Part shown: one piece after another, positions 285 to 39,764 of the stretch
How positions within the stretch are numbered: the first letter of the stretch is position 1
Layout: every line of letters starts with the position of its first letter
Program-made: the position numbers and the translations under genes
The notes under the pieces: generated by a model
What the model saw: the letters and a program-made list of their open reading frames with translations, nothing else
What the model was told of the DNA's origin: nothing
Databases searched by the model: none
Assembly: GCA_000004985.1 (NCBI GenBank)
Contig: GG738892.1
Source of the DNA: Naegleria gruberi
Taxonomy: Eukaryota
Reading direction: 5' to 3' (one strand)
Length of the DNA stretch: 64,000 nt

Positions 285-355
285 TGCGTCGACCGGGAAT
301 TGAACCCGGGTCACGGCGATGGCAACGCCGTATTCTACCACTAAACCATCGACGC
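285..355 (-). tRNA. tRNA-Gly (anticodon GCC)
   Basis: Reverse complement folds as a cloverleaf: acceptor GCGTCGA/TCGACGC, D-arm TGGTTTAGTGGTAGAA, anticodon stem CGGCG/CGCCG with loop TTGCCAT (GCC), T-arm GGGTTCAATTCCC. About 71 nt, no intron, discriminator A. Confidence 0.85.
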
Positions 356-479: not shown

Positions 480-3400
480 ATGGATGATCAGTGGCCCACC
501 CACCAAATTGACAAGAATGATGATCAAACTATTGATGTGGTTGGTAACCTAAAACCGAAGGAAGCGATCAAGGAGGTGAACAAAAAAATTAAACAATTAG
601 AGAATGAAATTAATTCCCACTTGTCCTCGTTTGATGTTAGTTTTGACTTTGGAGAAAATGGAGACTTCCAAAGACTGTTAGTTACCATTAGAAAGTTTGG
701 TAAAACATTTGCTAACGAAACTTTTGTAGCTTGTACAGACAAAAGCTCTCCAAGTATGATCTTTAGGTATTTGGAGGTGGCAGAAATATCATCTGCTAAA
801 AAATCAAATGAATTTGGCATTGAAAAGACACAATACTATTATGTAAGTAATTATACTAGTGGCATGTCAAATTCATTTCAAAAAGTTATTACAAGATATT
901 TCAAAATATCTCAAAAAGAATATGAATATGGAAGAATCGCTATTCGGCAAAGCAAAGAAAATGTTATTTGGTAAAACTAAGAGTGAACAGCTTTTAGATG
1001 AGTTGGAAATTATTTGTAAAGACAGATTCTATGAAGTCAACAACAAAGTGCTAGAAGAAGGTGTCGATGAAATTTGTGATTTCATCCAAAACAAAAAGAA
1101 AGAAGAAGCAAGAAAAATATTTCTTTCTCTATTTATGATGGTTTCTAAAAATCCTGACATATATTCTAATGTCAATCTCTTTCAAGTGGCATGTACTCAT
1201 TTATTACTGACACTATATGTTGCTAATAATCCACCTCCTGTTGTCTTTAAATGGATAAGTGAAATTCTCGTTACTAGTGCAAAAGATTACTCCAAATTTG
1301 CCCATAATATCAGGAAAATAATGTTGCTGAGTGGATTGAAAAACTTTGAGTTTGAATATGTATTGGTATTGCATCAATTTAAAAATAATCATTTTGATCA
1401 ATGGAATATATTTTGGAAAAAAGCCAGTATTTCAGCTGAGCTGCACGATTGGGTTTGTGAATATTATTTTAGAGTGTTTCCAAATAATTGGTATCATTTG
1501 GAAATTACTTTCTCCTCAATTATTCAACCTCAAAACTCCAAATATTTACCAATTTATGTATCTAGTTTATTGCAGAGATCACCAGAATATTTCACCAATT
1601 TTTGGAAGAACTATCTAAATAATTTAGACATGACAAAAGAACCACTCTACATATTTTGTCTGCAATTTTTATGCTATAACATACAGACATTCTTAAATGA
1701 TCTATTACTCAAGCAAAAGCTCATTTCTAGTCTTGCCACAAAAGAAATCCTTGATTTCTCTGAAAATACTCTTCAGTCTATTCTCCAAACAATTCAACAA
1801 TATGGAGTGGATTACTATTTGGGTGCACTGGAATTCTCACTAAAGAATAATGCCAAATCTGATAATCTGACCCCCAAAAACATGAGATTAGCAATCAAAT
1901 ACTTTCCAAATCAAGTGTCTAATGAAACTTTCATGATATTTTTAACAAACCAGATGAAAAAGAGGGCCAGTGTTGATGTAATATTCGAAATGATCGATAG
2001 TTACATGAATGTGAACGGATTGGATTTACAAAGAGTATTGTCCTTTTACACGAGTTGGTTTGGTTTAACAAAAGATTTCAGACATTTACAAATTTTTGAT
2101 ATTCTTGAATCAAAATCTATTGAATCTTTCATTTCTGAATTGGATGAAAATTCAGCGGAAACAATTGTATTGGCTTTATCTAACCTTTTTAATGATACAT
2201 CAGCAAAGGAGGCAAGACTGAAGTCTGCCAAGCAATTGTTCTACTTAGGATCTGATAATCTAACCAGACATCATTATGTATTTTATAAGGCATTTATCAA
2301 TTCATTGTTAGACTCTACTGATATGTTGGAAAGACTTAGAATAGTTTCATTAATCGCTGATGACATGTCTACTTCAAAGCTATTTTCGACTTTTGCTCCA
2401 TACCTTTTAGAAAATGCAATTGTAAATAGGGAACAAACAGGAATCAAGTTTTTCCTTGATTCTGAAAAGTACCTCAACATATTTATTAACACCTGGAAAC
2501 ATAATCAAAATTCAAAGGAATGGAAAGAGTATCGTGACTTATTCGTAAGTGCGGTAAAGAATCCTCTTCAAGACTTGACAGATAGCATTTCAGACAACCA
2601 GATAACGATCAAGGATTTGGAATTGTTACAAAAAGAAAGATATCGTTTTAATTCACTGATCGAGAAATTAGATTTAGCTAAAGTGAATGGAATAGAAAGA
2701 AAGATAGAAACTTCCAAGTCTGTAGAAAAAGATATTCAAGAATTGACTAAAATTATTTCATGGTTAAAAAGGTTCCCACTGCTTATGGAGTTTACACAAC
2801 ATTTATCATTACTGGATGAAACATCTACACTCTCAGAATTGGAATCTAATGTTGAAAGCCTCAAGGCACAACTTGATTATATTGATAACAGAAGAGACTT
2901 GATAATTTTTCTCCACGATGAAGACAGTCTATTGTTCCACTCTCTATTCAAAAAATTTCTTCATGACTCTGGGGAAACTGGTGATATTATAGCAGTATCT
3001 GAAATATTTACAAGAGTGATTGAATTCTTGGAACACATTAATATGCAAAATATTCAAAGTTTGAAAGAGTATGAGATTTTAGATCTTTCTAAGCAGCTGA
3101 GAGCTAAAGGAAAAACTCTCTCTGGTGAGATTGAACTTCTATCCTCAGTTCTTAACAAGACTAGTTCAGGAGGTCAATTTAATATCAATTTGGAGGTTTT
3201 AAGAAAAGCACTAAACTTGGAAGAGCTTGGAACTGGATTAGAATATTTTGTTGATTGTATGCAAGACTACAATATGGAGCTTGTTAAAGAAGAGAGTTTC
3301 AATAACATAAAAAGACTCAAAGATAGATTGTACGGTCTGAGAGACATTCCTCTTTCGGAAGTTGAAGTAATTCTTGATGTTTCTAATGAAGCAATGCAAG

Positions 3401-6400
3401 GTTTGGACGGTTATCACACCAAATATTTTAAAGATTTATTAACTCCAGAGTCAAAAGGATTAATTCAATTTTTGAAGGATAATTTGTTAAGCTTTGAAGA
3501 TTCTATCAAAGTAGTAAGGACAAGAAGTAGAAACTCTAAATTCCACGAAGAAATAGTGAATTCTTTAATTATTGCCAAAGAACTGGTCTCTCCTTTACTC
3601 AATCAAAAGATCACCTTCCAAGATTTTAGAAATAAGATTCTTGCCTTATTCAACAAGGAAGAGGATCTTTTCAAGCTTAAGGAACTTCAAGTTGTTAACG
3701 AAAATCTTACAACCATCAAAATTTTATTCTCTAGTACAGCCACTATCCACCTTGATGATGTTTTTGATAGTGTCAGGGCAATAATAGAAAAGGGAAAGTT
3801 TATTTCCACACCAGATTCATTAATCGTTAGCTACGAAGATAAAGAAATATCAGGAGAAGAGCTAGTTGATTTGGTTAGGGTTGCTATTTTCAGATCTTCT
3901 GATTCAGAAAATGACCAAAATATCAAGATGAAACATGATTTACAAAACTTTATATTGCTTTATCAAATGGCAGAGCAAATTCAGTCAACTATCAAAGAGC
4001 TAATCAAAGAGGGTTATCCTAAATACCATGATCAAGAACGAATCGAAATTAATGAAAGAATGGAAAAATTAGAGCTTGAAAAGAAGAACAATGCTTTTAA
4101 TGCAAAACTTGAAAAATGGAAAAAATCTATTGAGGACCTTGTGGAATCACAACCATTAGTTTTAAATTTATCAAGAAGTCAACTAACAAAATTTGTTTCA
4201 CTCTTCAAGGATAGTTTAGAAAGTGAAGAAAGGGAATGTCAAAGTCTTATTCCATATATAATGCTAATTGTTAAAGAATTGTTCAGAGATAATCTGAAGC
4301 ATTATCCAATTACAGAAGAAGGATTGAAGGAAATTTTGAGTGGTTTCAAAAGTACAACAAGTGCAAAAGAGATTTTGAAGCTTTCTGGTGAATTTGTACA
4401 GAAAATTATTGAAAGTATTGCTGGCGATTTAGATCAAGAAAGAAATAACTACGAAACCAAAACACTGTATGATGTGAATGGCTCACAAATACCAATTATT
4501 CTACTTAAAATATTCCAAGAAAATATCATTCAGTACTCTGGTGATAATAGTGTTTTGATAGTCAACAATTCCAATATCTTCTACTGTGATGAAAGTACAA
4601 GGAAAGAGGACATTCAATGGTTTTGTAAAAGAAGGAAAGCTTTCCCGGAGCTCACTTATGCTCTGGTTCATGTGAACAAGTTAGTGCTCAGTGTGAAGGA
4701 AGAGTTGATCAAGTTTGAGTTTGAAGCTCATGAAAAGAACCAAAAGGTAGGATTGACTACTTTGATTTTCACATCAGACGCATCTAAAGAAGCATTCTCA
4801 TTTATTGAAACAAAGAATGACATTGAAGGTATGGCCCAAAAGAAGCCAATTATTAGCAAGTACCTTTCAGAAAGTTGTAAGATAGAGAAATTTGAGACTG
4901 TTAAGGGAGAATCAGCTTCTGGTAAGACTCGTTATATTCAATCAGAAAAACGAGATAATGAGGTCTATGTGAGAATTGCAGTACATGAAGAATTTTCATA
5001 TGACTATTTTTATGAACAATTGTGTTCTTATGATTTTGAAAATTCACCAAAGGTTTTAATTCATTTTGATGTTTCCTATGTTTTTGAATTGAGAAACTTT
5101 GAATTATTCTTACTTGAATGGATCTTTGGTAGATGCTTGCAAAGTAAGAAGGGTCAACTGGTTGATACTTGGGGCAACACTAAAGAATCAATTCGTATTT
5201 TTGTTGAAATACCAAGTAGCTTTGAAAAAGTCAAGTTGGATTTAATATCTTTAATTGAGACTACTATTGGACCAAAATCATTACATTCAGATCTTGCAAG
5301 TTTTGATTTTGGAGAGGAAAAAACAAGATATGTAGCCTCAATGTTTACTTTGTTCAATTCAAAAAAGATTAATGATATTAATCGTTTCTTGAATGTTGAC
5401 AAGAATTTAGTCTCGGAAGAAAAGTCGAGACAAGTGCTTACTCAATTTTTCAGCGTAAGCAAGGTTACAAAAAGCCATTCATTGAGAAAAATATTCATTG
5501 AATTGATGTATGAAAGGTTAAGAGGTCTTGAAAATTATCATATTAAGTTTTTGAAATTGAAAGAGTCCAACGAGTTTGGTCAAGATATTTACGGAAATGC
5601 TCAAGAATTAATTTTCACAATCAATGGAACTCTCTTCCCTGTATTTAAAGAAGAATGTGAGGTGATGACAGATAATACTATTGAACGATGCTGGAGTGAC
5701 CTTCCCGTAGTATTTGCAGTACCAAATCTTACAGATGATATACCCAATTATAATATCGTCAGATGTTCTAAATGTAGCACTACTAGAGAGTATATTGGCA
5801 TGCAACCACTTGATGTAAAAACTAGCACACTAGCAGAAATACGTTCAATATTGACATCCTCTTTCGAAGTTAATTCCATAATTGAAATTTGTGAAAAGAC
5901 CAACTATTTGCTAACTAAGGACTTTGCTATCAAATTATTTTTGTTAGATGAAAGAAGAAAGGTTGGCAGATCTGTTATTATTGAAAGTGAAACTGGTGTG
6001 GGAAAAAGTGAATTGCTTCGATTTTATTCAAATATTTTAAATTCCAACAACAAATTATTGCCTGATATAAGATTTGAGCTAAGGAAGTGGCTGTGTGAAA
6101 CTGTTGATCAATTCACTTCCAAGAATAATATTCAAACAGAGGTTAGAACTAAAAATATGGACAAATGTAGATCCAGAGAATATATTGTAAAGCTGTTGAA
6201 AGAAACAGAAGAACAAGTTGGTCAACAGTTGTTGCAAGAAATTACAATTTCTCTAGTAAGCGCAGTTAAGAAAATATTTGATGAGTTCAAATTAATTGAA
6301 AAAACAGACCTTATTAACTCCACTTTTGAGGCTCTTGAACAACAGAATTATGATTTATGGACAGTGGATATGATTGCTGACTTTTTAGCTCAAGCTGAGT

Positions 6401-9400
6401 CAGCAAGACCTGAAAACTCTATTTATTTCAAGATTTTGATGCATAGTGGTATAAGTTCACAAGAAATAAGACAAACTATAAGAGATATCGAAAGAAACAC
6501 TTTGAGATTAATCAATTCAGGATATCAAGACTTAAAGGTTGTTGTTTTCATTGATGAGTTGAATACAAGCAGTTGTATGGGCATTATGAAAGAGCTATTT
6601 GTGGACCATACATTAGACGGTCAATTGTTACCAAAATCTATCTTTTTTGTTGGTGCCATAAATCCAAAATTGCAAAATGAAGAATATGTAGTTAACGAAA
6701 TTGCACCATCCATGAAACTTATCAGATTTAACTATGCAGATCTCTCTAAATATCAAGAGCAAGAATTTTTGGCTCTACTGATCGAATTAGAGCAAAAGAA
6801 GCGAGATGAACATGAAGGATTTGTACATGATTTACAAACATTCATTTTATCTGCCCAACGTTTTGTTGCAGAGTCTAAACAATTGGATAAGAGAATAAGA
6901 GTTTCAATCAGAGATTTAACAAGGGCATGTAAACTATATTGGTTTTTGAAGGATAATGAAGTTCTTTACTACTCTGCTAATCTCTCCATAGAACAATGTC
7001 ACATTATTTGCTTATACATGGCCTTAGCACTGTCCTATTATTTCAGATTACCTTCTAGTGAGAGAACCAAATTTGAGGAAATGATTGATAGAGAAGCACA
7101 TACTCAGGTGCAATATGGAATCTTTGCATTTTCTCAAGTTGTCTCAGAGCAATTAGGATATTTCTATCAAAAAGCAAAACAACGCGGATTTATTCCTCCA
7201 GGTATTGCAAGTACAAAAGCATTATTAGAAAATTTCTTCACTATGGTCATTGGAATTCAAGTTGGAATAGGAATCAGCTGTGTTGGTCCTCCAGGAAATT
7301 CAAAGACTTTATCTTACACTATTGCAACACAAAAGAAGAAGAGTCTTTTTGTTGGAATGAAAACTGTTCATACCCAACATTATCAATGCAATGAATTGTC
7401 TACTGCTAATGAAATTGAATTAGTAGTAAAGAGCCAAGTTGAAACTAGACGAAAGTATGAAAGAGCAGGAATGGTTAACGAAATTTGTAGTGTATTAATT
7501 GATGAAGCAAGTCTTCCAATAGAAAAGAAAAATTCGCTCAAAGTTCTTCATTACTATCTTGACAAACCAACTATTAGCACAGTTCTCATTTCAAACAATT
7601 TATTGGATGCAGCTAAATCTAATAGATGTATTCAAATTGTTCAACCAGAGACTAGCTTTGAGGATTTGAGAGCACTTTGTCAAGGTTGTTTAATGTTAAA
7701 TGAAGATGACATTAAGCCAAATTCAAGAATAGATAGAATTATTACAGCATTATGTAAATCATTTAAAGAGGTCAATTATGTGCTTACTAGCACAATTGTT
7801 AAGCAACATAATGGCACTGGTGGAATTTTCCATTTGAGAGATTTCGTCTACTTCTTAAGAATGCTATCTAAGAATAAGGGTAATCACAAGGAGGTTTTCT
7901 CTGGTAACAATATTTACTATTGTTTACAACGTAATTTTAATGGTGTTCCAGAAAATGATTTCCAAAAAATTCAAGAGCTTTTCTTGACAAATATTAACGA
8001 AATGTTAGGAACAAAGATTCATATCGAAAAGGAAAAGATCAAGCAATATATTGATGTAGTATATGATAGTATTCACGATAGTTTATCAAAATACGATGAT
8101 CCAAATCAATCTCACTACAGACATACTATGATTATCGATCCGAGCCAAGCTCAGGCCTCTATTAAGCTTTTAACATCCAACAATATAATTGACCAATCCA
8201 AGACAAAGGTTGTTTACATTAGCGATTTTAAGGGTGATACAAATGATTTGTCCCTTTCTCAAGAAATTAGTGAAGTCAAAAATTGTATGGAACTTGGAGC
8301 ACCGGTAGTATTGGTAAATTCATCTGCCATTTCTACAAATTTCTTTGACGTTTTTAACAAACACTTTACCAAGGTAAATGATAGATACTTTGCCAATGTG
8401 TCTATTAAAGGAAAAACTCACCCATGTGAAATTAATTCCAGCTTCCACTGTATAGTCCACGTTCCTATTGCACAATACAGAGAGTTACCTTTGCCATTCT
8501 TGAATAGATTTGAGAAATACATTATTGGTGCAGAGAGAGTTTTGAAGAGTGATCTTTTGGTTGAAAAAGAGGAGAGCAAGAAGGCAATTTTCGATCACAT
8601 CAGAAGAGGAGTTAATGACTTTGTTCGTCAATTTGATGCTAGTACATTCTATGGTCTTGTTGAAGATGAAACAGTGGATTTATTAATCAAATCAATCTAT
8701 CAACAATCCAAAGACTCTATTCAAATTAAGAAACCACTAACAATTAAGAATAATAACATTATAGAACTATTGAAAGAAAATGGTATGGAAGATAATATCG
8801 ATTTAGAGGAAGAGGACGAAGAAATTTCCATCAACAAACTGAGGAGCTACATTAGAAAGATTAACTTTCAACTGTTGCAAATTGCCAAACCTGAAGATAT
8901 TTTCCTCAGAAGAAAATTCATTCCAAAATCCTACCTAGTGGAGTACCTCACAAAACAAGAGCACTTTTGTACAATTTCATTTTTGAAGAATGCCATAGAC
9001 CAACATTTCAAACAATCCACAACAAATAATTCAAAGTACATTCTTTATACCAGACACTCAAGTGGTATTCACACTCTCAATGATACTGACCGTTTAAAGG
9101 AGATTACCTCCGTTGCATGTACTTCTGAACCTTTGAAGTCATGTGTGAACAATCCAAGTGAAATTATTACCCTTGCTTCACTTTCTTCATTCTCTTCTCA
9201 ATTAGAATTCCACAGATTCTTGGGAGAGTTTGCAGCTGATCATCAAAAGCTTGTTTTACTATTAACCATTGATATGTCAATGATTTCTAAAAACACTGTG
9301 AATTTTGTAAAATTCAAGATTGAGAATATTCTTTCTTCTCCAATGAAGAAGGTTAAGAATATGACACCTTTCGTTTCTCTTATTCTCTACTTCCCTCCAG

Positions 9401-12400
9401 AGTCTTCTCATTTCAATGCTGCTTACGATAGTATTTTCTTAGGGTGGGACTATTATTACATTGACAGTTTAAGAGGAGACCTTGGTGATGGTCAAATTAG
9501 TCAATATAGAGATAGCAGATACTGGTTTAGTGTTGCTGTTGGATTACTGAAGGGATTCCGTGCATCTGATAAACAGGCCTTCCAAAATTCTTTCATTCCA
9601 TTATATAACAAGCTTTTGGAAGATTATATTCGTTCAGATAATACAGCCGTTGCATCTGGATCACTTAGTCCATTTTTCATGAGAAGAAATATTAACAAAC
9701 TGGTAGACAAGAAAAAGTTTATTCTGACAAATATTAACAAGCTTGAATTATTGAGAGACATTGTGTTGAACATGTTTGCTGATAGGTGGAATAACCAGTT
9801 CCTTTCTCAACTCGTTCAAAAAATATGTACCGATATTACCAGTGGTAAGATAGTCAATGGTATCATTCAAACAATTTCCTATGAACTTTCGTCTGTCCTA
9901 GAAGAAATGATGTATCCTATCACAAGAAAATTAATTTATCTTACACCATCCGTACAAAAGATTCTCAATGTAGAAGATCAATCTACACTTTGTTTACTAC
10001 GTAAATTGATAGAGGTTTTCATAACAACAAACAAGAAAAAGAGCAAGAGCTCAGATATTTTACATGTATCAACCTATCAAAGTACAAATGAACACTTGCC
10101 TCTTTCTACTCTCCTTATTGAAAAGATGATTCTAAATGAGAAATCTGATAATCTAGACGAAGTGGTAGAAATGATTGAGAATGACAAGGAAAATTTTGAA
10201 AAATTCCGTCTCGATATGATTTCTTTCTATTTTGAAAAAGACATTACAAAAGAAGACCAAGCAATAAGATTAGTTGATATTCTTATTTCCCCTATTTGGA
10301 ATAGTGCAGAGGGAAAGAAGAGTATGAGACTACTCTCACATCTTTCACAAACCAAAGTCAAGAATAGTATCAAAATCTTACTTAACGTTCTTTCCCAATT
10401 CAAGTCTATTAATTTCTTGACAGACGAATTCAAAAAACATTTGCAAGGAAAGCAACTCCATGAGTGTTTGGAAGTCATCTTTACTTACATTCTTGATTAT
10501 GTATACAAAAATATAGGAACAGCTCTTGAAGAGAAAGACTTGGATAGTATTAATAGTTGGATGAGCGAACTTTCATCTATCAACTTTATGTATATTAAGG
10601 ATATTGCACCTAAATACTTTAAGAGTTCAAGATTCTCCATTCTATTCTTGGTCTACTATGTGTTGAAAGGATGGGTTTTAAGTGAAGAGCAAATTGAATA
10701 TTTGTGGAAAGGAATTACAGAACTATACAAAAATCCAACATACCTACCAGATAACTTTATAGATATTTATAATTGCTTCAAAGATACTGTTACAACCTTC
10801 TTGGACCCTAATCAACAATCTATCTGGATTAATAATGTTACGAGATTTGCCTTTGTGCATATTATTGACATTTGGTCGGCTCCATCATTGACAAACTTTT
10901 TCACAATTATTTCACAATACGAAAAGGATGAAAATTCAATTTTCAAACAACTTAATATTGGCTTGATAACAAGTATTACAAAAACCATAATGGCTCGTTA
11001 TCTGCAAAACAAATTCAACCAAAATATGACGAATGTAGTTGAGCAAGAATTGAACAATTACTCTGATGAAAACTTTGTCCCAGAAGAATTATCTTCAAAG
11101 AAACAACCATTCTCTGTTCTGCTTCTTCAATCATCATATCTTTCTCATCACTCTCAATCAAAATGGGAAACATTCCTTCCACTCTTTACAAGACATCAAG
11201 AGGATGGAGGCAATAGTAAGCTTTCCAAACTTATCACTCAAGCCAACAATATTTTGCTGATAACAAAGCTCTCGAGTCATCTCCTCAAAGATGATGATCC
11301 ACAAAAAACTATTGAAAATATGGATGCAGAAACATGTGAATTGATTACTAATGTTATGAAACAAGAAAACATGGCTCTTTATTTCCTTTCAAGATATACT
11401 TCTGATGTTGAGTTGGAGATGATTCTTACTACAAATAGAGGAGAATTGGGAAGAATAGGACTGGCAAATTTCCATATACCATCAATTAAGAAGAATTTTA
11501 AATCTCATCATTTCTCATTCATGCATGATAATAATCAAGTGTACACAGATTTGAAAAGACATATTGAATCTAACAATATTCAACAGATACATAATTTTAT
11601 CAATACCAATGCTGCCCAGCATAAGTATTTCATTAGAATGTGTTTGATTGTAATCTCGTATAATTTCTACTTTTTGGAATGTAAATCTTGTGATGCTGTA
11701 TTGGCTATTTTACAAGACAGAAATGTATTGAATACTCTTAGTATTGATGACTCTGAGTTGAAGGCATTCGTATTCTTTGCTACTAAACCAGTATCTCTTC
11801 CAGTTGAGAAACAAGATGACTGGTTCGCATCATATTACTTCTCTCAGGAATTCATCAACTCTAACAGGGATAAGATGCTGACTCACCTCCTAGCAAATAT
11901 TACAGCAACTAATGTGGGCGTTCCAAAAGAGAAGAATCACTTGTATAACAGAATGTTTAATCCACAAGTATTGGCCAATTCATTCGGTCCTGGAAGTACA
12001 TATCAGGATAGGAACTGGGATTGTGGATATACTAGCTCTGGATACAATATTAATAACATTGAAAGCCACAATATTATGAATAGAAATCAGACATACCACT
12101 CAGCTTTGAACTCGCTCACTTGGGCTTCCTTTGTAATGTGCGTAATATTCGATCCAGCAAAGAATGAAAATGCTGCCAAAGGTGGACATATGTGTAATTG
12201 TATTGATGATGTCAAATTCAGGCCCAATTTAAGCAATTTGGAACAACTTCAAACCTATATTAAGATTAGGGCTGATACTTTCTGTTCTATTTTTGCTCAT
12301 TCACCTAATATTATTGGAAATGTGGACCCAATTATTTTCTTTACCTCATCTCTCGAGGAATTCACCAAGCAAGCACCAAACAGTAATGATTGTTTTGGAT

Positions 12401-14469
12401 TCTTTGCAAATAATAATACTCCAACCATTAGAGCATATGAAAACTTTTGGATGAACTCATGTTTCATTCCAACACTCAATCGTTATGCTAACATTGTTGG
12501 TAAAATGAATGCTGGTCAGAAACTTCTTCAAGATATTGGTCAATTCAAGGAAAGATCGTTGGCTATTAGAAAATGTGTTGATTTATTCCCTTCAAGAGAA
12601 AATATTCTTGCTTTCTTCTCCCAAAGATATACTGATATTGAAGATAATGCTGAGCTCATGACAGTAAGGCAAATAGTCAAACATAAGGACTGGTTATTGT
12701 TTAGTTATTATTTTATTGACTTTTTGAGTTTTTATGTTAAATTACACAGAGGTTTGAATGGCAAGATTGAAAGAGACTCAATTCATATGACAGTCAAGGA
12801 TGCATTAACACTCATTACCAAAGATAAGAGTAAACAAGAGGAAGAAGCCATCTACGAAAGTTGGGAATGCTTTAAGAAATCTTGGAATATTGTATCAGAA
12901 AAACAAGAGAGAAACATTGTTTGTCAACATGCTAACCAAGCTGAAATACCAATTATTGATGAAAACTCAATTCTCTCTCATCTGCTCTATGTTGAAGGTG
13001 GTAATAATGAGATTGGAACATTACTTTTAACAATTTATAATGCTCAATCAGATATTCAACAAGGACATTCTTTCCCAGATACCATTGATGCAGCCTATGT
13101 TATGGAACTTGATGATGTCTTTTACAAACTATTATTCAGCAAATTTGAGGATGATAACTTCTTTGAAAATATTCAATACTATGTAACAATCAATAACGGA
13201 GATATTAACTTTGATTGGAAGTCATTGGAGAGTTATTTTGTTGAATCACTTTCTAAAGGAAGGCCAAGACTTTTGGTTAAAAAGGATCAAGTTATTAGTC
13301 CACAAGCCATCTGCAAGTTCAAGGAGGATATCCCAATTGAGGAAGATTTACCTGATGAGATAATTCAAGAAGATAGCCTTTCTCTGGATACTTATGCATC
13401 TGAACTGAATACCTTGATTGAAAAGATGAATAGTATGGATATTTCATGGAAAACATTCGACAATACCAAGAAGAAATCATTTATGAATTCACTCAACTTC
13501 AGAGATACTAAAAAGATTTTACAAATTGCCAAAGATACATGTCAAGCTGCCACAAATTTGATTGGAAAAGTTCCCTTCAAATCATTTAGTATTGTCAACT
13601 CAGAAAGGGAAATTTTAGGATTCTCTGAATTTGTATTGGACATTATTTACAATAGAGATGAAGTTAAATCTCTATACGATAAATTCTCCTCCACGTTCAG
13701 AATTCCAATGTCAACCTCAACAAAGGAGAAATTTGAGAGAATTACTCTCTATACCATGAAAATGGTAGAAACATCCAATCCAGAATTGGATAATTTCCTG
13801 TCTGATTTGAGAACTATTGCTACTGTTATTTACAACAATGAAAAGGATATTGTTAATGCATACGCTTCAATGACAACTGCTAGTCTTAGAACCGTTTTTG
13901 AGTCTCAAATTCAAGTCAAAAATCACGATAATTTAGCTCAAATCCTTCCAAACTATTTCCTTGTTAAAAATTTGGTTCCTTACATTGAAAATATTAGAAG
14001 ATTAATTGGTAAAATTGAGCTCAAGAAATCTTCCATGAAAACGGAAAATTACCAAGAGCTTGTCCCTGATAATCTGAAAACAAGACCTGAATCTCCTATT
14101 GATCCATTGGACAGTTTGATTTCAAAAGTAGAAGAACCTGAAGAAGAAGAAGAAATTCCACAACCTCCTCCAATGTTTAATGTGATGCCACTATCTAACC
14201 TACCAATCATGCGTCCAAACATGCCTTCTAACAATTACACAATAGATCCAAATCAAATGAACAAGATTAAGAACCTTATGGAACAAGCCCAGAACGAGAA
14301 GCAAATTTCTCTACTTCTGCAACCACAATTATTGGATAATAATCTTCTATTGAGATTGGTAGAATTATTGGAAGAGGCAGAAATGTTGACAGAGGAAGGT
14401 AAAGAACTGCAACAAGCAATTTCAACCAACCAAACTATTATTTTACAAAACTTTAACAAGTTGAGATAA
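480..14469 (+). CDS. Giant (~4650 aa) protein with two dynein/midasin-class AAA+ ATPase modules (possibly RNF213/mysterin-like). Proposed structure: exon 1 480..842, 43-nt intron 843..885 (GTAAGT...AAAAAG), exon 2 886..14469.
   Basis: A 13.6-kb uninterrupted ORF in AT-rich DNA. First AAA module: Walker A 'ESETGVGKSE' (near nt 5990), Walker B 'VVVFIDELN', sensor 'FVGAINP' (AAA_5/dynein-midasin style). Second module: 'GPPGNSKT' (near nt 7290) with 'SVLIDEAS'. An upstream 121-codon ORF (480..842) ends exactly at a GTAAGT donor and joins in frame to the main ORF through an AAAAAG acceptor at 884-885. Confidence 0.6.
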
Positions 14470-14606: not shown

Positions 14607-15973
14607 TTAATTTTGATATCCACCATTTTGGTTATAATATTGTTGTTGTTGGGATTGAGAATAGCCCATATTTCCATATTGAGAATCATTCATTGGATTT
14701 CCATATTGTACAGATTGACCATATTGAGAAGTATTTTGAGAGGTTGGAATATTTTGATAATTACTTTGATACATGTTGTTTTGATTTCCTGGTTGACCAT
14801 TATAATAAGATTGATTCATAGAAACTGGACTAACAGATTGATTAATGGCTTGATTAATAGATTGAGTCATTGGTTGTTGTTGCTGTTGGGAAGTAGATGG
14901 AAGTTGTGTACTAGTGTACTTTTGATTCAACTTTTGAGTAATGGTATCCAAAATCTTGCATTGAACTTCATAGGTCTTTTTCATTTCAGCATTTCTAATT
15001 CTGAGATCTGAAACTTCCCTTTCCAATAGGGCAACCATTTGATTAACCTTTTCATTCAATTCATTTGGTGGTGAAGTTTGATTTGAAGGAATAGAATTGG
15101 CAGATAAATTATCAACCTGTTGAACAAATGATACTGTTTGAGTATTCAAATTATTTGCATTATTGGAATAGGATAATGATGGATTAACTGCTTGTTGAGG
15201 TGAATTTCTAGTAGAACCATTAAAATTGAAATTATTCACAGATCTAGAATCAACAGAAGATTGAGAATATTGTGATTGATTATCGTGGGATTGATTCATA
15301 TTTCCATGACCAACATTTCCAAGTGCTTGTTGTTGTTGTTGATTGCCATTATTATAATTTCCACTAACAGTACCATTGGAAGAAGGCATTGATTGATTGG
15401 CAGCACTATTCGTTGGAGTGTTGTTTGGTGAAAAGGATGGAGGTGATGCAACTGATCGGAAAGCATTACCATTCATCATCATGGAATTATTCATCATTGG
15501 ATTATAGTTTTGATTGTTATTCATCATCACCATGGAATTATTCATCATTGTTGTGGTTGTGGTTGCTGATGATGTTGATTATTATTGTTGATCATTACAT
15601 TATTTGGAATATCGGATGATGCTGATGATGATACTTGTTGTTGTGGTTGGAAGGAATTATTCATCATAGGATTAATAGGAGATGATGATCCATAACTTTG
15701 CTGATTTGATTGTTGTGGCACAACAGAACTACTGTATTGTTGATTATTGTGTTGTTGTTGTTGTTGTGGATAGGAAGGAACAGAAGAAGAAGCATTCATA
15801 TATGGTTGTTGTTGCATCTGATGATGATAGGAAATTTGATTACCACTTCCAATGGTTACTCCATTATTATTATTATTACTGAAATTATTATTGATATTGC
15901 TAGTAGTGTTGGAAAGGTTTGAGTATTGTTGGTGTTGCTTTTGTCGCTGATCAGCTTCTTGTTGGGAAAGCAT
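14607..15973 (-). CDS. Q/N-rich low-complexity (prion-like) protein with a C-proximal coiled coil. The two ORFs (15545..15973 and 14607..15548) are offset by one nucleotide, so this is a frameshift or indel.
   Basis: Both ORFs on the minus strand show strong N/Q/S/M bias (runs QQQQQ, NNNNN) and a heptad region 'ELNEKVNQMVALLEREVSDLRIRNAEMKKTYEVQ'. The frames overlap by about 12 codons within CAA/CCA repeats near 15545. Confidence 0.5.
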
Positions 15974-16240: not shown

Positions 16241-16360
16241 ATGGCTACGGCCATATCACGATGAACGCACCTCATCCCGTTCGATTTGAGAAGTTAAGCA
16301 TCGTCGAGCCACATCAGTACTGAGGTTGGAGACAACTTGGGAACCTGTGGTGCTGTAGTC
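16241..16360 (+). rRNA. 5S ribosomal RNA (120 nt), copy 1
   Basis: Matches eukaryotic 5S hallmarks: ACGGCCATA..GAACGC..GAAGTTAAGCA..TAGTACT..TGGGAGAC..CTGGGAA..GGTGCTGTAG. It is immediately followed by TTTTT (a Pol III terminator). Confidence 0.85.
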
Positions 16361-16365
16361 TTTTT
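16361..16365 (+). terminator. Pol III oligo-T terminator of 5S copy 1
   Basis: TTTTT run directly after the 5S 3' end. Confidence 0.55.
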
Positions 16366-17769
16366 AATCTTAGATAAAGCAACAGGAGTTTAACTGAGCT
16401 TGAGAGGTTATAAATAACATTATGAACTATTGTAAATATTGTGTGAATGATTTAGGTTTTATTTGCAATGATTTGCCTTGGTTTACAAAATTTTGAGTTA
16501 AATGGAGATTACCACTTTTTGAATTGTTTGTTTCTCATTTAGTGATTGAGATTTGGAAGTTTTACTTGTTTCATCAAAATATTAATAGAAAAATTCAAAC
16601 TTCTTGTGATGAGTGGAAAATCCACTAAAAATCAGAATCACAAAATTAGTTATAAATAGGATGATGAAAGTTCCACAACAAAACAAAGTTACTAAATAAC
16701 AAACACTAAGAGCAAAATGCCAGCTAGAAATACCTCATCAAATTCTTCATCTTCCTAAGATAGAATTCCAACAAAAACAGAATGGACAAGATCAAAACCA
16801 ATTGATTTATCTAAGAGATTACCATTATTTGATATTGATACTTCTAATATTATAAGTGGAACTAGACATCGTAATAATATTGATTATCATCATGCAAATT
16901 TAAATGGTAAACAAATTTCTGTGAAAAGATCTTCTAAAAATTCAATTGAAAAGAGAGCTAAACAACAATCGAACACCACTAATAAGAAGATTACCAAATC
17001 GAAAAAGATGTAAATTACAACTTGTAAATAATTCAGTAAATTGTAAATAAAATAATTTGTTTTGAAATAGATGAAGTTTCAATTTAGAATTGATCAGAAT
17101 ATGAGAAACCAAAATTTGGATCAAGCAACTCACGTGGCAAAAGTTCAATAAATAGAAGGGTGATCAACCTTTTCAATTTCTTCAACAACCTGTTATTTGA
17201 ACACAACAAGATTCGTCCAGAACTCTTGCCTTCACTGTTCATACAGTCAAAGACTGTAGCGGGATAGTCGCCATATTCCTGGCAGGCTTCCCGTCTAAAA
17301 TTACAAAACGAATTAACCATTGAAAGACAAAATCTTAGTTACTTGAAATCTTTAACATATTCCTTCATTTTTTCAATTTATTTTTTATTCATTGTATTAA
17401 GGCAATAAATGGCTACGGTATATCCTTTCATAGAGTTAAACATTGATTTTGAGTAATGAATAGCTGTACCCAAACCATTTTACAAGTATTAAATTTTTCC
17501 AATAATCACCTTTTAATTCAAAACCATTAAGAGTCAAATTGCATTCAATTCACGAACAACAAGTTAAAATTCATTATTGCATGTACAGCTGCAGCCCATA
17601 CTTACAAAACATGAACCAAGTTTGTGTCCAGAAACAAAAATCGGTTCATTGAAAGAATTTCTTTGCAGAAGAACTACTTTCTAAAAATATATACATCTCA
17701 AAACAATATAAAAAGCAAGGAACTGTTTTGAATTCAAGAAAAACAATAAGAAACAGGACAACAAACATA

Positions 17770-18228
17770 ATGCAATTATTTGTCAAGACACTCACTGGAA
17801 TAACTATCACTTTGGAGGTTGAATCTAATGATTCAATTGAAAACGTGAAAAGAAAAGTGCAAGATAAGGAAGGAATTTCACCAGATCAACAAAGACTCAT
17901 CTTTGCTGGAAAACAATTGGAAGATGGCAGAACTATTAATGATTACAACATTCAAAAAGATTCAACTCTTCATTTGGTGTTGAGATTAAGAGGAGGAATG
18001 CAACTTTTTGTAAAAACTTTAACTGGAAAGACAATCACTATTGAAATGGAATCGAATGATACTGTTGAGAATATGAAACAAAAGATATTTGATAAGGAAG
18101 GTATTCCTTCAGATCAACAACGATTGATTTATGCCGGTAAGCAATTGGAAGATGGAAGAACTATTGGTGATTACAATCTTCAAAAGGATTCAACTGTGCA
18201 TTTAGTATTGAGATTGAGAGGTGGTTAA
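17770..18228 (+). CDS. Tandem di-ubiquitin (2 x 76 aa, ending GG-stop), highly divergent from canonical ubiquitin
   Basis: Two head-to-tail ubiquitin-fold repeats, [10 protein letters not shown]...LRLRGG, with the stop directly after the second GG. Repeat 1 differs from canonical ubiquitin at 11 of 76 positions and repeat 2 at 16 of 76. The two repeats also differ from each other. Confidence 0.85.
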
Positions 18229-18425: not shown

Positions 18426-18545
18426 ATGGCTACGGCCATATCACGATGAATGCACCTCATCCCGTCCGATTTGAGAAGTTAAGCATCGTCGAGCCACATC
18501 AGTACTGAGGTTGGAGACAACTTGGGAACCTGTGGTGCTGTAGTC
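18426..18545 (+). rRNA. 5S ribosomal RNA (120 nt), copy 2
   Basis: Identical to copy 1 except for two substitutions in the 5' third. Followed by TTTTT. Confidence 0.85.
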
Positions 18546-18550
18546 TTTTT
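18546..18550 (+). terminator. Pol III oligo-T terminator of 5S copy 2
   Basis: TTTTT after the 5S 3' end. Confidence 0.55.
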
Positions 18551-18765: not shown

Positions 18766-19002
18766 TTAAGCAGAAGCTTGCATAATCTTGAAACCCCACC
18801 AGATGGCCCACAACCAACCAATCAACAAGGAAGCCAAGATAAATTGGAGAATACCAACAATCAAAGTTGAAGTCATCTTTTCCTTTTCAGAAGTGAGGAA
18901 AGCAGCAATAATAGTACCGAAACCTGGGAAGAGGATATTGAGGATGAGGACAATCAATCCCATACCTTCACATCTTGGAGTGCTATCTTCGAGGAGACCC
19001 AT
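18766..19002 (-). CDS. Small (78 aa) two-TM membrane proteolipid, paralog A. Possibly SPEC3/Stum-like.
   Basis: MGLLEDSTPRCEGMGLIVLILNILFPGFGTIIAAF...LIGWLWAIWWGFKIM. It has two hydrophobic helices, a C...N..FPGfGT motif and a GWLWxIWWG motif. It is 90% identical (70/78) to the ORF at 20560..20796. Confidence 0.6.
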   Translation of the reverse strand: MGLLEDSTPRCEGMGLIVLILNILFPGFGTIIAAFLTSEKEKMTSTLIVGILQFILASLLIGWLWAIWWGFKIMQASA

Positions 19003-19530: not shown

Positions 19531-20275
19531 ATGCCAGAATCTTACACTCTCCATTATTTCAACCTCCAAGCCGTAGGTTTTGATTTTCATCACATCATCA
19601 TAAAATTCAAATTAATTCAATTAACACTTCTTTCTTTGATAAATTAAAAAGAGAGGTGAAGCTGCCTATCTCATAGCTGTGCACGGTGGCGTTCCAGTCA
19701 CAAGAAATCTCTTCTCCGATTTCAACAAGGATTTGAAGGAAAAGTGTCCTTTCGGACAGGTTCCATTACTTGTTGTGCAGGATGATGTCAGTGGTGCCAC
19801 TGCACACATTGTACAATCTATTGCAATTTGTGAATTTTTGGCAAAGAAGGCTGGTTTAATTCCAACCTCTCATGTTGAACAAGCCATTGCTTTGCAATAC
19901 GTGTTGGGAGTTGATGAATTTAGAACTGAAGTCTACTCTCAATATTACAGTGGAAAGGAAACACAACAGGCAAAGAAGGAATGGAAGGAAGGAAAGATGA
20001 AATTCTTCTTGGACAAGTTTGAATCATTCTTGGTTGGAAATAAGAAGGAAGATCGTGATCTCTTCCTTGTCGGATCATCAATTTCTTGGGCTGATATTTG
20101 CTTGTATGATGCATTGGTAGAACAAGCCTTTTTGTTGGATGAAGATAACTTGTGGGGTAATTATCCACTCCTCAAAAAATTCATGAAACAAGTTGAAAAC
20201 AGTTCTGAATCCTTTAAACAATATGTTACAAGTAGCAGTAAACCAGTTTTGTATATGAAGAATTGGAGACAATAA
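19531..20275 (+). CDS. Glutathione S-transferase (sigma/HPGDS-like class), two exons: exon 1 19531..19576, intron to 19661 or 19676, exon 2 to 20275
   Basis: Exon 1 encodes MPESYTLHYFNLQAV (a GST N-terminus of the MPxYxLxYFN type). Exon 2 contains PFGQVPLLVV and a C-terminal GST domain (LVGSSISWADICLYDALV). The acceptor is a pyrimidine tract ending ...CTCATAG. The donor GTTTTG and the exact acceptor are uncertain. Confidence 0.6.
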
Positions 20276-20559: not shown

Positions 20560-20796
20560 TTAAGCAGAAACTTGCATAATCTTGTAACCCCACCAGATAG
20601 CCCACAACCAACCAATACACAATGAAGCCAAAACCAATTGGAGGATACCAACAATCAAGGTTGAGGTCATCTTTTCCTTTTCACTGGTGACGAAAGCAGC
20701 AATGATGGTACCGAAACCTGGGAAGAGGAAGTTGAGGATGAGGATGATCAAACCCATACCTTCACATCTTGGAGTACTATCTTCTAAAAGACCCAT
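20560..20796 (-). CDS. Small (78 aa) two-TM membrane proteolipid, paralog B of 18766..19002
   Basis: 90% amino-acid identity to paralog A. The flanking 5' and 3' UTR nucleotides are also similar (aagcagaaRcttgcataatcttg). Confidence 0.6.
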   Translation of the reverse strand: MGLLEDSTPRCEGMGLIILILNFLFPGFGTIIAAFVTSEKEKMTSTLIVGILQLVLASLCIGWLWAIWWGYKIMQVSA

Positions 20797-39691: not shown

Positions 39692-39764
39692 CGCCCACCG
39701 TGGGGGTCGAACCCACGACCACAAGGTTAAGAGCCTTGCGCTCTACCGACTGAGCTAGACGGGC
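39692..39764 (-). tRNA. tRNA-Lys (anticodon CUU)
   Basis: Reverse complement is GCCCGTCTAGCTCAGTCGGTAGAGCGCAAGGCTCTTAACCTTGTGGTCGTGGGTTCGACCCCCACGGTGGGCG. It has a canonical cloverleaf, anticodon loop CTCTTAA and a GTTCGA T-loop. Confidence 0.85.

Follow-up and report, generated by a model that had tools for sequence, protein, structure and literature searches.

The window, the 64,000-nucleotide stretch of Naegleria gruberi DNA analyzed here, contains at positions 17770-18228 on the plus strand an intact open reading frame (ORF) of 152 codons, with its ATG at 17770 and its TAA at 18226-18228, that consists of two 76-codon ubiquitin units arranged head to tail with no spacer between them. A repeat finder recovered the units as a 228-nt direct repeat with a spacing of 228 and 76% identity. 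Pfam family PF00240 matched the product in two stretches, one per unit (E = 3.4e-59, 197 bits), and at such a value the resemblance to ubiquitin is not due to chance. The 152-aa product is identical to XP_002673186.1, EFC40442.1, and D2VRS6 (D2VRS6_NAEGR), named 'polyubiquitin [Naegleria gruberi]' and placed on a 342-kb scaffold, and the neighboring Vps41 ORF is 100% identical to NAEGRDRAFT_81004. The di-ubiquitin gene is real and already annotated in GenBank. The window is nuclear DNA with a GC content of about 33%; the GC content (33%) and GC3 of the gene match those of the genes around it. Its GC3 is low (0.25), and the codon bias of a highly expressed gene is not apparent. No second ubiquitin-like sequence was found elsewhere in the 64-kb window with tblastn. 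Literature searches on the accessions of the gene found no paper mentioning it, and searches on NAEGRDRAFT ubiquitin genes returned nothing. The features discussed below are as follows.

285-355, minus strand: tRNA-Gly(GCC).
16243..16361, plus strand: 5S rRNA gene upstream of the di-ubiquitin gene (105/104 bits for the pair; 153-nt repeat at 92%).
17770..18228, plus strand: di-ubiquitin-variant gene, complete ORF of 152 codons plus TAA (ORF, exact protein match, Pfam PF00240).
17770..17997, plus strand: ubiquitin-variant unit 1, 76 aa (substitution counts, alignment).
17998..18225, plus strand: ubiquitin-variant unit 2, 76 aa (substitution counts, alignment).
18226..18228, plus strand: TAA stop, directly 3' of the last GG codons (GGT GGT TAA in the sequence).
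18428..18546, plus strand: 5S rRNA gene that lies 200 bp 3' of the di-ubiquitin stop (second of the pair; 105/104 bits, 153-nt repeat at 92%).
18766-19002 and 20560-20796, minus strand: two copies of a 78-aa Spec3-family membrane protein, 86% identical in DNA over 273 nt.
19679-20275, plus strand: GST-like gene between the Spec3 copies.
39692-39764, minus strand: tRNA-Lys(CTT).

An initial annotation of this DNA described two tandem ubiquitin repeats, strongly divergent and non-identical, with 11 and 16 substitutions against canonical ubiquitin. The ORF and the PF00240 match over both units bear out the description, and a script count returned the same numbers, with no counting error. Relative to human ubiquitin, the 11 changes of unit 1 are I3L, K11I, P19S, S20N, T22S, A28R, I30V, P37S, L56I, S57N, and E64D, and the 16 changes of unit 2 are I3L, L15I, V17M, P19S, S20N, I23V, V26M, A28Q, Q31F, P38S, F45Y, L56I, S57G, I61L, E64D, and L67V. 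The two units also differ from one another, as had been noted, at 15 amino acids and at 55 of 228 nucleotides. The product is 82-88% identical to ubiquitin.

Both units keep the parts of ubiquitin on which processing and recognition depend. The LRLRGG ends, K48, K63, and the hydrophobic residues L8, I44, H68, and V70 are present in each, and the script alignment likewise agreed with the initial annotation on the GG ends, K48/K63, and the I44 patch, with F45Y in unit 2. The patches L8/I44/H68/V70, I36/L71/L73, and Q2/F4/T12 are unchanged, and the internal junction LRLRGG|MQLF is canonical. R42 and the L71-R72-L73-R74-G75-G76 tail are specificity determinants for the E1 enzyme (Uba1), and NEDD8 has A72; R42, R72, R74, G75, and G76 are unchanged in both units and in the three units of the N. 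lovaniensis protein described below. An assignment to NEDD8 was considered and rejected, with R72 present and only 41-42 of 76 residues identical to human NEDD8. The set of seven acceptor lysines (K6, K11, K27, K29, K33, K48, and K63) is complete in unit 2, whereas in unit 1 K11 is replaced by Ile and the remaining six are kept. This loss went beyond the initial annotation, as did the stop codon placed directly after GG with no C-terminal cap residue.

The appropriate reference for these substitutions is the ubiquitin of the genus. A structural-genomics study put the identity between the polyubiquitin of N. fowleri (NF0029300, PDB 5VIX) and that of human at 96% (PMC7990177). We reconstructed the 5VIX sequence by matching the 5vix_A bit scores (279.2, 311.3, 317.0) to local phmmer scores of candidate sequences and an exact look-up then bore the result out: the record 'Chain A, Polyubiquitin [Naegleria fowleri]' consists of MAHHHHHH and, after it, one 76-residue unit present in two identical copies. 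Exact look-up of one to five untagged copies of this unit gave no match in the collection, in which the tagged PDB construct alone was found, because real proteins carry unknown tails. P19S, S20N, and A28S are the only changes that separate the N. fowleri unit from human ubiquitin. Thus, P19S and S20N, listed among the substitutions by the initial annotation, are the normal ubiquitin state of the genus, and the differences from N. fowleri canonical ubiquitin number 9 for unit 1 and 14 for unit 2. The initial annotation had offered two explanations, a fast-evolving lineage or a specialized di-domain gene with canonical ubiquitin encoded elsewhere. On this evidence the former is contradicted for the Naegleria lineage, since three changes and identical repeats are not what fast-evolving ubiquitin would look like.

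A canonical ubiquitin is expected to have few substitutions from the ubiquitin of its own lineage and to have seven lysines. Differences of 9 and 14 residues from N. fowleri depart from the first expectation in both units; K11I departs from the second in unit 1, and unit 2 conforms to it. Eight of the 14 changes of unit 2 relative to N. fowleri are conservative I/L/V/M exchanges within the buried core (positions 3, 15, 17, 23, 26, 56, 61, and 67). Surface changes cluster on the helix (positions 28 and 31), in the 37/38 turn, at position 45, and at positions 57 and 64. As a polyubiquitin the gene has the head-to-tail, spacer-free 76-codon units of the canonical format but neither the identical, homogenized units nor the cap codon. 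In canonical polyubiquitin genes an extra codon normally caps the last GG (PMC10457151). The GenBank label 'polyubiquitin' is misleading for this locus.

The divergence of the two units is old. With the Nei-Gojobori method, unit 1 versus unit 2 gave a dS of 1.60, which is saturated, a dN of 0.143, and a dN/dS of 0.090. The dS within this one gene is as large as the dS between its units and those of N. lovaniensis (1.0-1.6). Normal polyubiquitin genes undergo concerted evolution (PMC10457151), and the saturated dS indicates that no homogenization has taken place here for a very long time. The signature of purifying selection on both units is clear.

A homologue search with the di-ubiquitin product found one Naegleria relative among the matches listed, N. 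lovaniensis C9374_007316, a protein of 232 aa. Searches with either the di-ubiquitin or the N. lovaniensis protein gave lists dominated by long canonical polyubiquitins, whose scores sum over repeats, and the self-match was not among the matches listed. The gene is located as follows.

PYSW02000029.1 (L001), 3473-4171: N. lovaniensis three-unit variant gene (homologue search).

C9374_007316 is built of three variant units that are non-identical and depart from the ubiquitin of the genus at 14-16 positions each, and it ends in a YYLL tail. Unit 3 has K63Q and starts with an Arg that immediately follows GG; the Arg start would be a destabilizing N-terminus if the unit was released. When the five Naegleria variant units were compared in pairs, dN/dS was 0.05-0.16 in all ten cases, with dS saturated. 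Across the five, 46 of 76 positions are invariant and canonical, including K6, K27, K29, K33, K48, the known interaction patches, and the E1 determinants. Derived states are shared as well: E64D occurs in all five units and I3L and T22S in four of the five. K11 is replaced in four of five (I, R, R, and T), including all three N. lovaniensis units; Q31 and P38 are each changed in four of five; and many of the changes are I/L/V/M core swaps.

The phylogeny of the repeats that the initial annotation had proposed gave a partial answer. In a neighbor-joining tree, the five variant units grouped together and apart from the canonical ubiquitin of N. fowleri and of other eukaryotes, weakly, with 46% bootstrap, and NEDD8 was far from all five. 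In the same tree, named polyubiquitin entries of Tetrahymena pyriformis, Benniella, and Cafeteria contain non-identical units. The premise that polyubiquitin repeats are identical in protein sequence is accordingly too strong, and the phenomenon is not unique to Naegleria. Of the two explanations offered initially, a specialized di-domain gene with canonical ubiquitin elsewhere is the better, given the dN/dS of about 0.09, the saturated dS, the N. lovaniensis relative, and the weak grouping of the variants. That explanation is supported at the genus level, with the canonical copy within N. gruberi itself extrapolated from the genus.

Two 5S rRNA genes in the same orientation, identical at 117 of 119 positions and 2185 bp apart, bracket the di-ubiquitin gene, and a stretch of about 18 nt near 17408-17425, between them, resembles the 5S 5' end. 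N. fowleri shares microsynteny with the window through a 558-aa gene, Vps41, a Spec3-like gene, a C2-domain gene (inverted), GST, and a second Spec3-like gene, and the order Spec3, GST, Spec3 is kept (N. fowleri contig L004, 15952-22720). Beyond the last Spec3, the place of the 5S/di-ubiquitin/5S block of N. gruberi is taken in N. fowleri by an unrelated gene of 806 aa, so that synteny ends at this block; both ubiquitin sequence and a 5S gene are absent from the syntenic N. fowleri site. Willaertia magna has only Vps41 and one neighbor in common with the window. In N. lovaniensis the variant gene sits at the end of its contig and has a DDE_Tnp_4 transposase gene 1.2 kb away. The ubiquitin units are the only thing its locus has in common with the window, and no 5S genes were found beside it. 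A USP7_ICP0_bdg/ankyrin protein is encoded 5.6 kb downstream of it. The variant genes are thus not positionally conserved. Strict orthology of the N. gruberi and N. lovaniensis genes is uncertain, and the family may be subject to turnover.

We consider it probable that the di-ubiquitin gene is a diverged polyubiquitin paralogue that escaped homogenization, has long been under purifying selection, and serves as a source of conjugatable ubiquitin variants. N. gruberi would also have canonical ubiquitin genes elsewhere, as the genus does. Ordinary deubiquitinases would cut the precursor after each GG to release two different monomers, which the normal E1/E2/E3 cascade would activate and attach to proteins. 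Cleavage and conjugation are the most economical reading of the intact LRLRGG|M junction, the tail, R42/R72, and the receptor patches. Marks made with unit 1 would be unable to form K11 links. The variant marks are expected to differ from canonical ones on the helix face (28 and 31), in the 37/38 turn, and on the 56/57 and 64 surfaces, and unit 2 would offer all seven lysines on a protein with a remodeled helix face and core.

Variant units in polyubiquitin format are an uncommon but known phenomenon. Human UBBP4 is a diverged copy of UBB whose variants (UbKEKS) are conjugated by the normal machinery and have distinct targets (PMC7066184), and by analogy it offers the closest documented precedent for the proposed mechanism. 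Like the Naegleria gene, it is a diverged polyubiquitin copy that encodes non-identical variants and keeps the GG tail; in Naegleria the polyubiquitin-format ORF with variant units is present and the canonical ubiquitin is seen in N. fowleri. However, UbKEKS differs from ubiquitin at only 4 positions, whereas the Naegleria units differ from the ubiquitin of their genus at 9 and 14. UBBP4 is a recent mammalian copy and the Naegleria units, with dS saturated, are ancient. Conjugation has been demonstrated for UbKEKS and is what we infer for the Naegleria units.

Other known genes share particular features. The Tetrahymena pyriformis entries Q27192, Q27196, and Q27191 and a tri-ubiquitin of Benniella sp. 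have head-to-tail 76-residue units with intact LRLRGG junctions, and the units are non-identical, as in the Naegleria gene. The Arabidopsis polyubiquitin-like genes UBQ8 and UBQ9, reportedly described by Callis and colleagues in 1995, are said to have units that differ from each other and from canonical ubiquitin. In contrast to all of these, the Naegleria gene has only two units, has no cap codon, has lost K11 in one unit, and coexists, at the genus level, with a strictly canonical homogenized polyubiquitin. A review covering Catic & Ploegh 2005 describes the ubiquitin moieties of protist UbS27a and UbL40 as strongly divergent while canonical ubiquitin is kept at other loci and gives failed recombination with the polyubiquitin locus as the proposed cause (PMC10457151). 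Those moieties, like the Naegleria units, escaped concerted evolution, but they are fused to ribosomal proteins; the Naegleria units are in polyubiquitin format and no ribosomal protein is attached. The same review, in a passage citing earlier work, puts baculovirus viral ubiquitin at about 76% identity to ubiquitin and has it used by the host E1/E2/E3 cascade (PMC10457151). Its divergence is similar to that of the Naegleria units, and it also keeps the GG and the main lysines. It is, however, a single-unit viral gene, and scans of viral contigs showed no such affinity for the Naegleria gene.

Escape from homogenization would be well illustrated by this locus. In textbooks ubiquitin exemplifies both extreme conservation and the concerted evolution of tandem repeats, and two units that have long been different and yet constrained are a clean natural example of that escape. 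The locus therefore bears on the debate over concerted evolution, birth-and-death evolution, and 'selfish polyubiquitin'. If the variants are conjugated, Naegleria 'ubiquitin' as seen by diGly proteomics or with antibodies could comprise variant as well as canonical marks, and the recurrent loss of K11 would be a natural experiment in chain-type usage.

An alternative to release of monomers is that the product stays uncleaved, either as a di-domain modifier of the ISG15/FAT10 kind, conjugated through the one GG at its C-terminus, or as a protein that mimics linear M1-linked di-ubiquitin. ISG15 and FAT10, like the Naegleria protein, have two tandem beta-grasp domains and a C-terminal GG. With exactly two units and a free GG end, the C-terminus of the Naegleria product would be ready for conjugation without processing, the units have been kept different for long, and the Arg start of N. 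lovaniensis unit 3 hints that cleavage may not be the rule in the family. A possible partner for such a modifier is nearby. The ORF at 859-14469 on the plus strand is uninterrupted, encodes 4536 aa, and ends 3.3 kb upstream of the di-ubiquitin gene. It has no Pfam match at E <= 1e-5, but a PDB search aligned its residues 1940-2564 to the AAA core of RNF213, a giant E3 ligase (E = 2.5e-33), and it has a Walker A motif, GPPGNSKT, at residue 2143. Mammalian RNF213 binds ISG15-modified proteins.

Other observations speak against an uncleaved product. Identity to ubiquitin is about 30% for ISG15 and FAT10, which lack an internal site for cleavage after GG, whereas the Naegleria protein is at 82-88% and its internal LRLRGG|M junction, which is lost in ISG15 and FAT10, is perfect. 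The N. lovaniensis relative has three units rather than two, and no RNF213-like sequence is present within its 14-kb locus. A simple pattern search did not find a RING motif in the giant ORF, the synteny with N. fowleri breaks exactly at the di-ubiquitin gene, and neighboring genes in eukaryotes are usually without a functional link. We found no paper connecting RNF213 and Naegleria, and a functional tie between the RNF213-like ORF and the di-ubiquitin gene is pure speculation. An uncleaved di-domain protein is thus unlikely. In the interval between the giant ORF and the upstream 5S gene, 14607-15973 on the minus strand holds a pair of ORFs of 313 and 142 aa that adjoin each other, with a very high content of Q, N, and S and no Pfam domain; a single low-complexity gene, interrupted by a frameshift or a short intron, is the probable explanation.

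It is also possible that the gene is a nonfunctional or decaying duplicate, a copy of polyubiquitin that moved to this site, perhaps along with 5S rRNA genes, and that is now unexpressed and drifting. Such an origin would suit the absence of the gene from the syntenic position in N. fowleri, with the break in synteny falling between two 5S genes, as well as the presence of only two units, the missing cap codon, and the low GC3. There is also precedent, in that ubiquitin pseudogenes are common in many genomes (PMC7066184). However, all 152 codons are intact despite a dS of about 1.6 between the units, and a dN/dS of 0.09 is far from neutrality. The substitutions are biased toward conservative core swaps, the interaction patches and the C-terminal tail are all intact, and the N. 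lovaniensis relative has the same pattern. Decay is therefore, in our judgment, slightly less credible than an uncleaved product.

A bolder form of the paralogue reading would give Naegleria a dedicated second 'ubiquitin alphabet': an old, genus-wide family in polyubiquitin format that keeps the determinants for E1, deubiquitinases, and receptors, has lost K11 in four of five units and gained E64D in all five, and makes chains or marks without K11 linkages. In N. gruberi it might act with the adjacent RNF213-like AAA protein as a stress or antimicrobial module of this free-living amoeba, resembling ISG15/RNF213. We regard this as a long shot. Only two features might repay follow-up, namely the repeated loss of K11 and the neighboring RNF213-like ORF.

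It is very improbable that the diverged paralogue proposed above is instead the principal polyubiquitin of N. gruberi, with ubiquitin evolving fast in the species or lineage. GenBank names the product simply 'polyubiquitin', and the gene is the only ubiquitin gene in the window. However, the N. fowleri counterpart has three changes from human and identical repeats. A working polyubiquitin is normally homogenized: its units are identical, they number at least 3-4, and a cap codon follows them (PMC10457151). The N. gruberi gene has none of these properties. N. gruberi cells are stained by antibodies against canonical ubiquitin and against K48 and K63 chains (PMC11772885), which is a weak point against this reading because the variants keep the recognized regions.

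Acquisition from a giant virus or another foreign source is scarcely credible: giant-virus contigs do carry single ubiquitin genes with E64D and the N. lovaniensis relative adjoins a DDE transposase, but the viral matches, at 84-86% identity, are single units that have I3 and a canonical K11 and come no nearer than cellular ubiquitin does, a family-specific DNA pattern had 0 matches in viral contigs, the composition of the gene equals that of its neighbors, and S19/N20 are common to the variant units and the canonical ubiquitin of the genus. Viral origin was rejected with these 0 pattern matches and with a protein-based scan that gave two ordinary single viral ubiquitins.

Individual substitutions of the family also occur elsewhere. 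A back-translated 13-residue pattern had 0 matches in metagenome DNA, and a metagenome pattern requiring L3 and D64 found two unrelated single-ubiquitin genes. These, on metagenome contigs L003 (2747-3034) and L002 (236-799), are single-unit ubiquitin genes with E64D and I3L in non-Naegleria contexts, and the IMG/VR viral contigs L006 and L007 have single-unit ubiquitin genes with E64D. Taken one by one, E64D and I3L recur independently. The ubiquitin on L002 is fused to an unknown C-terminal domain of 100 aa, and the ubiquitin gene on L003 lies between genes for an AAA ATPase and a Cys-rich, RING/IBR-like protein.
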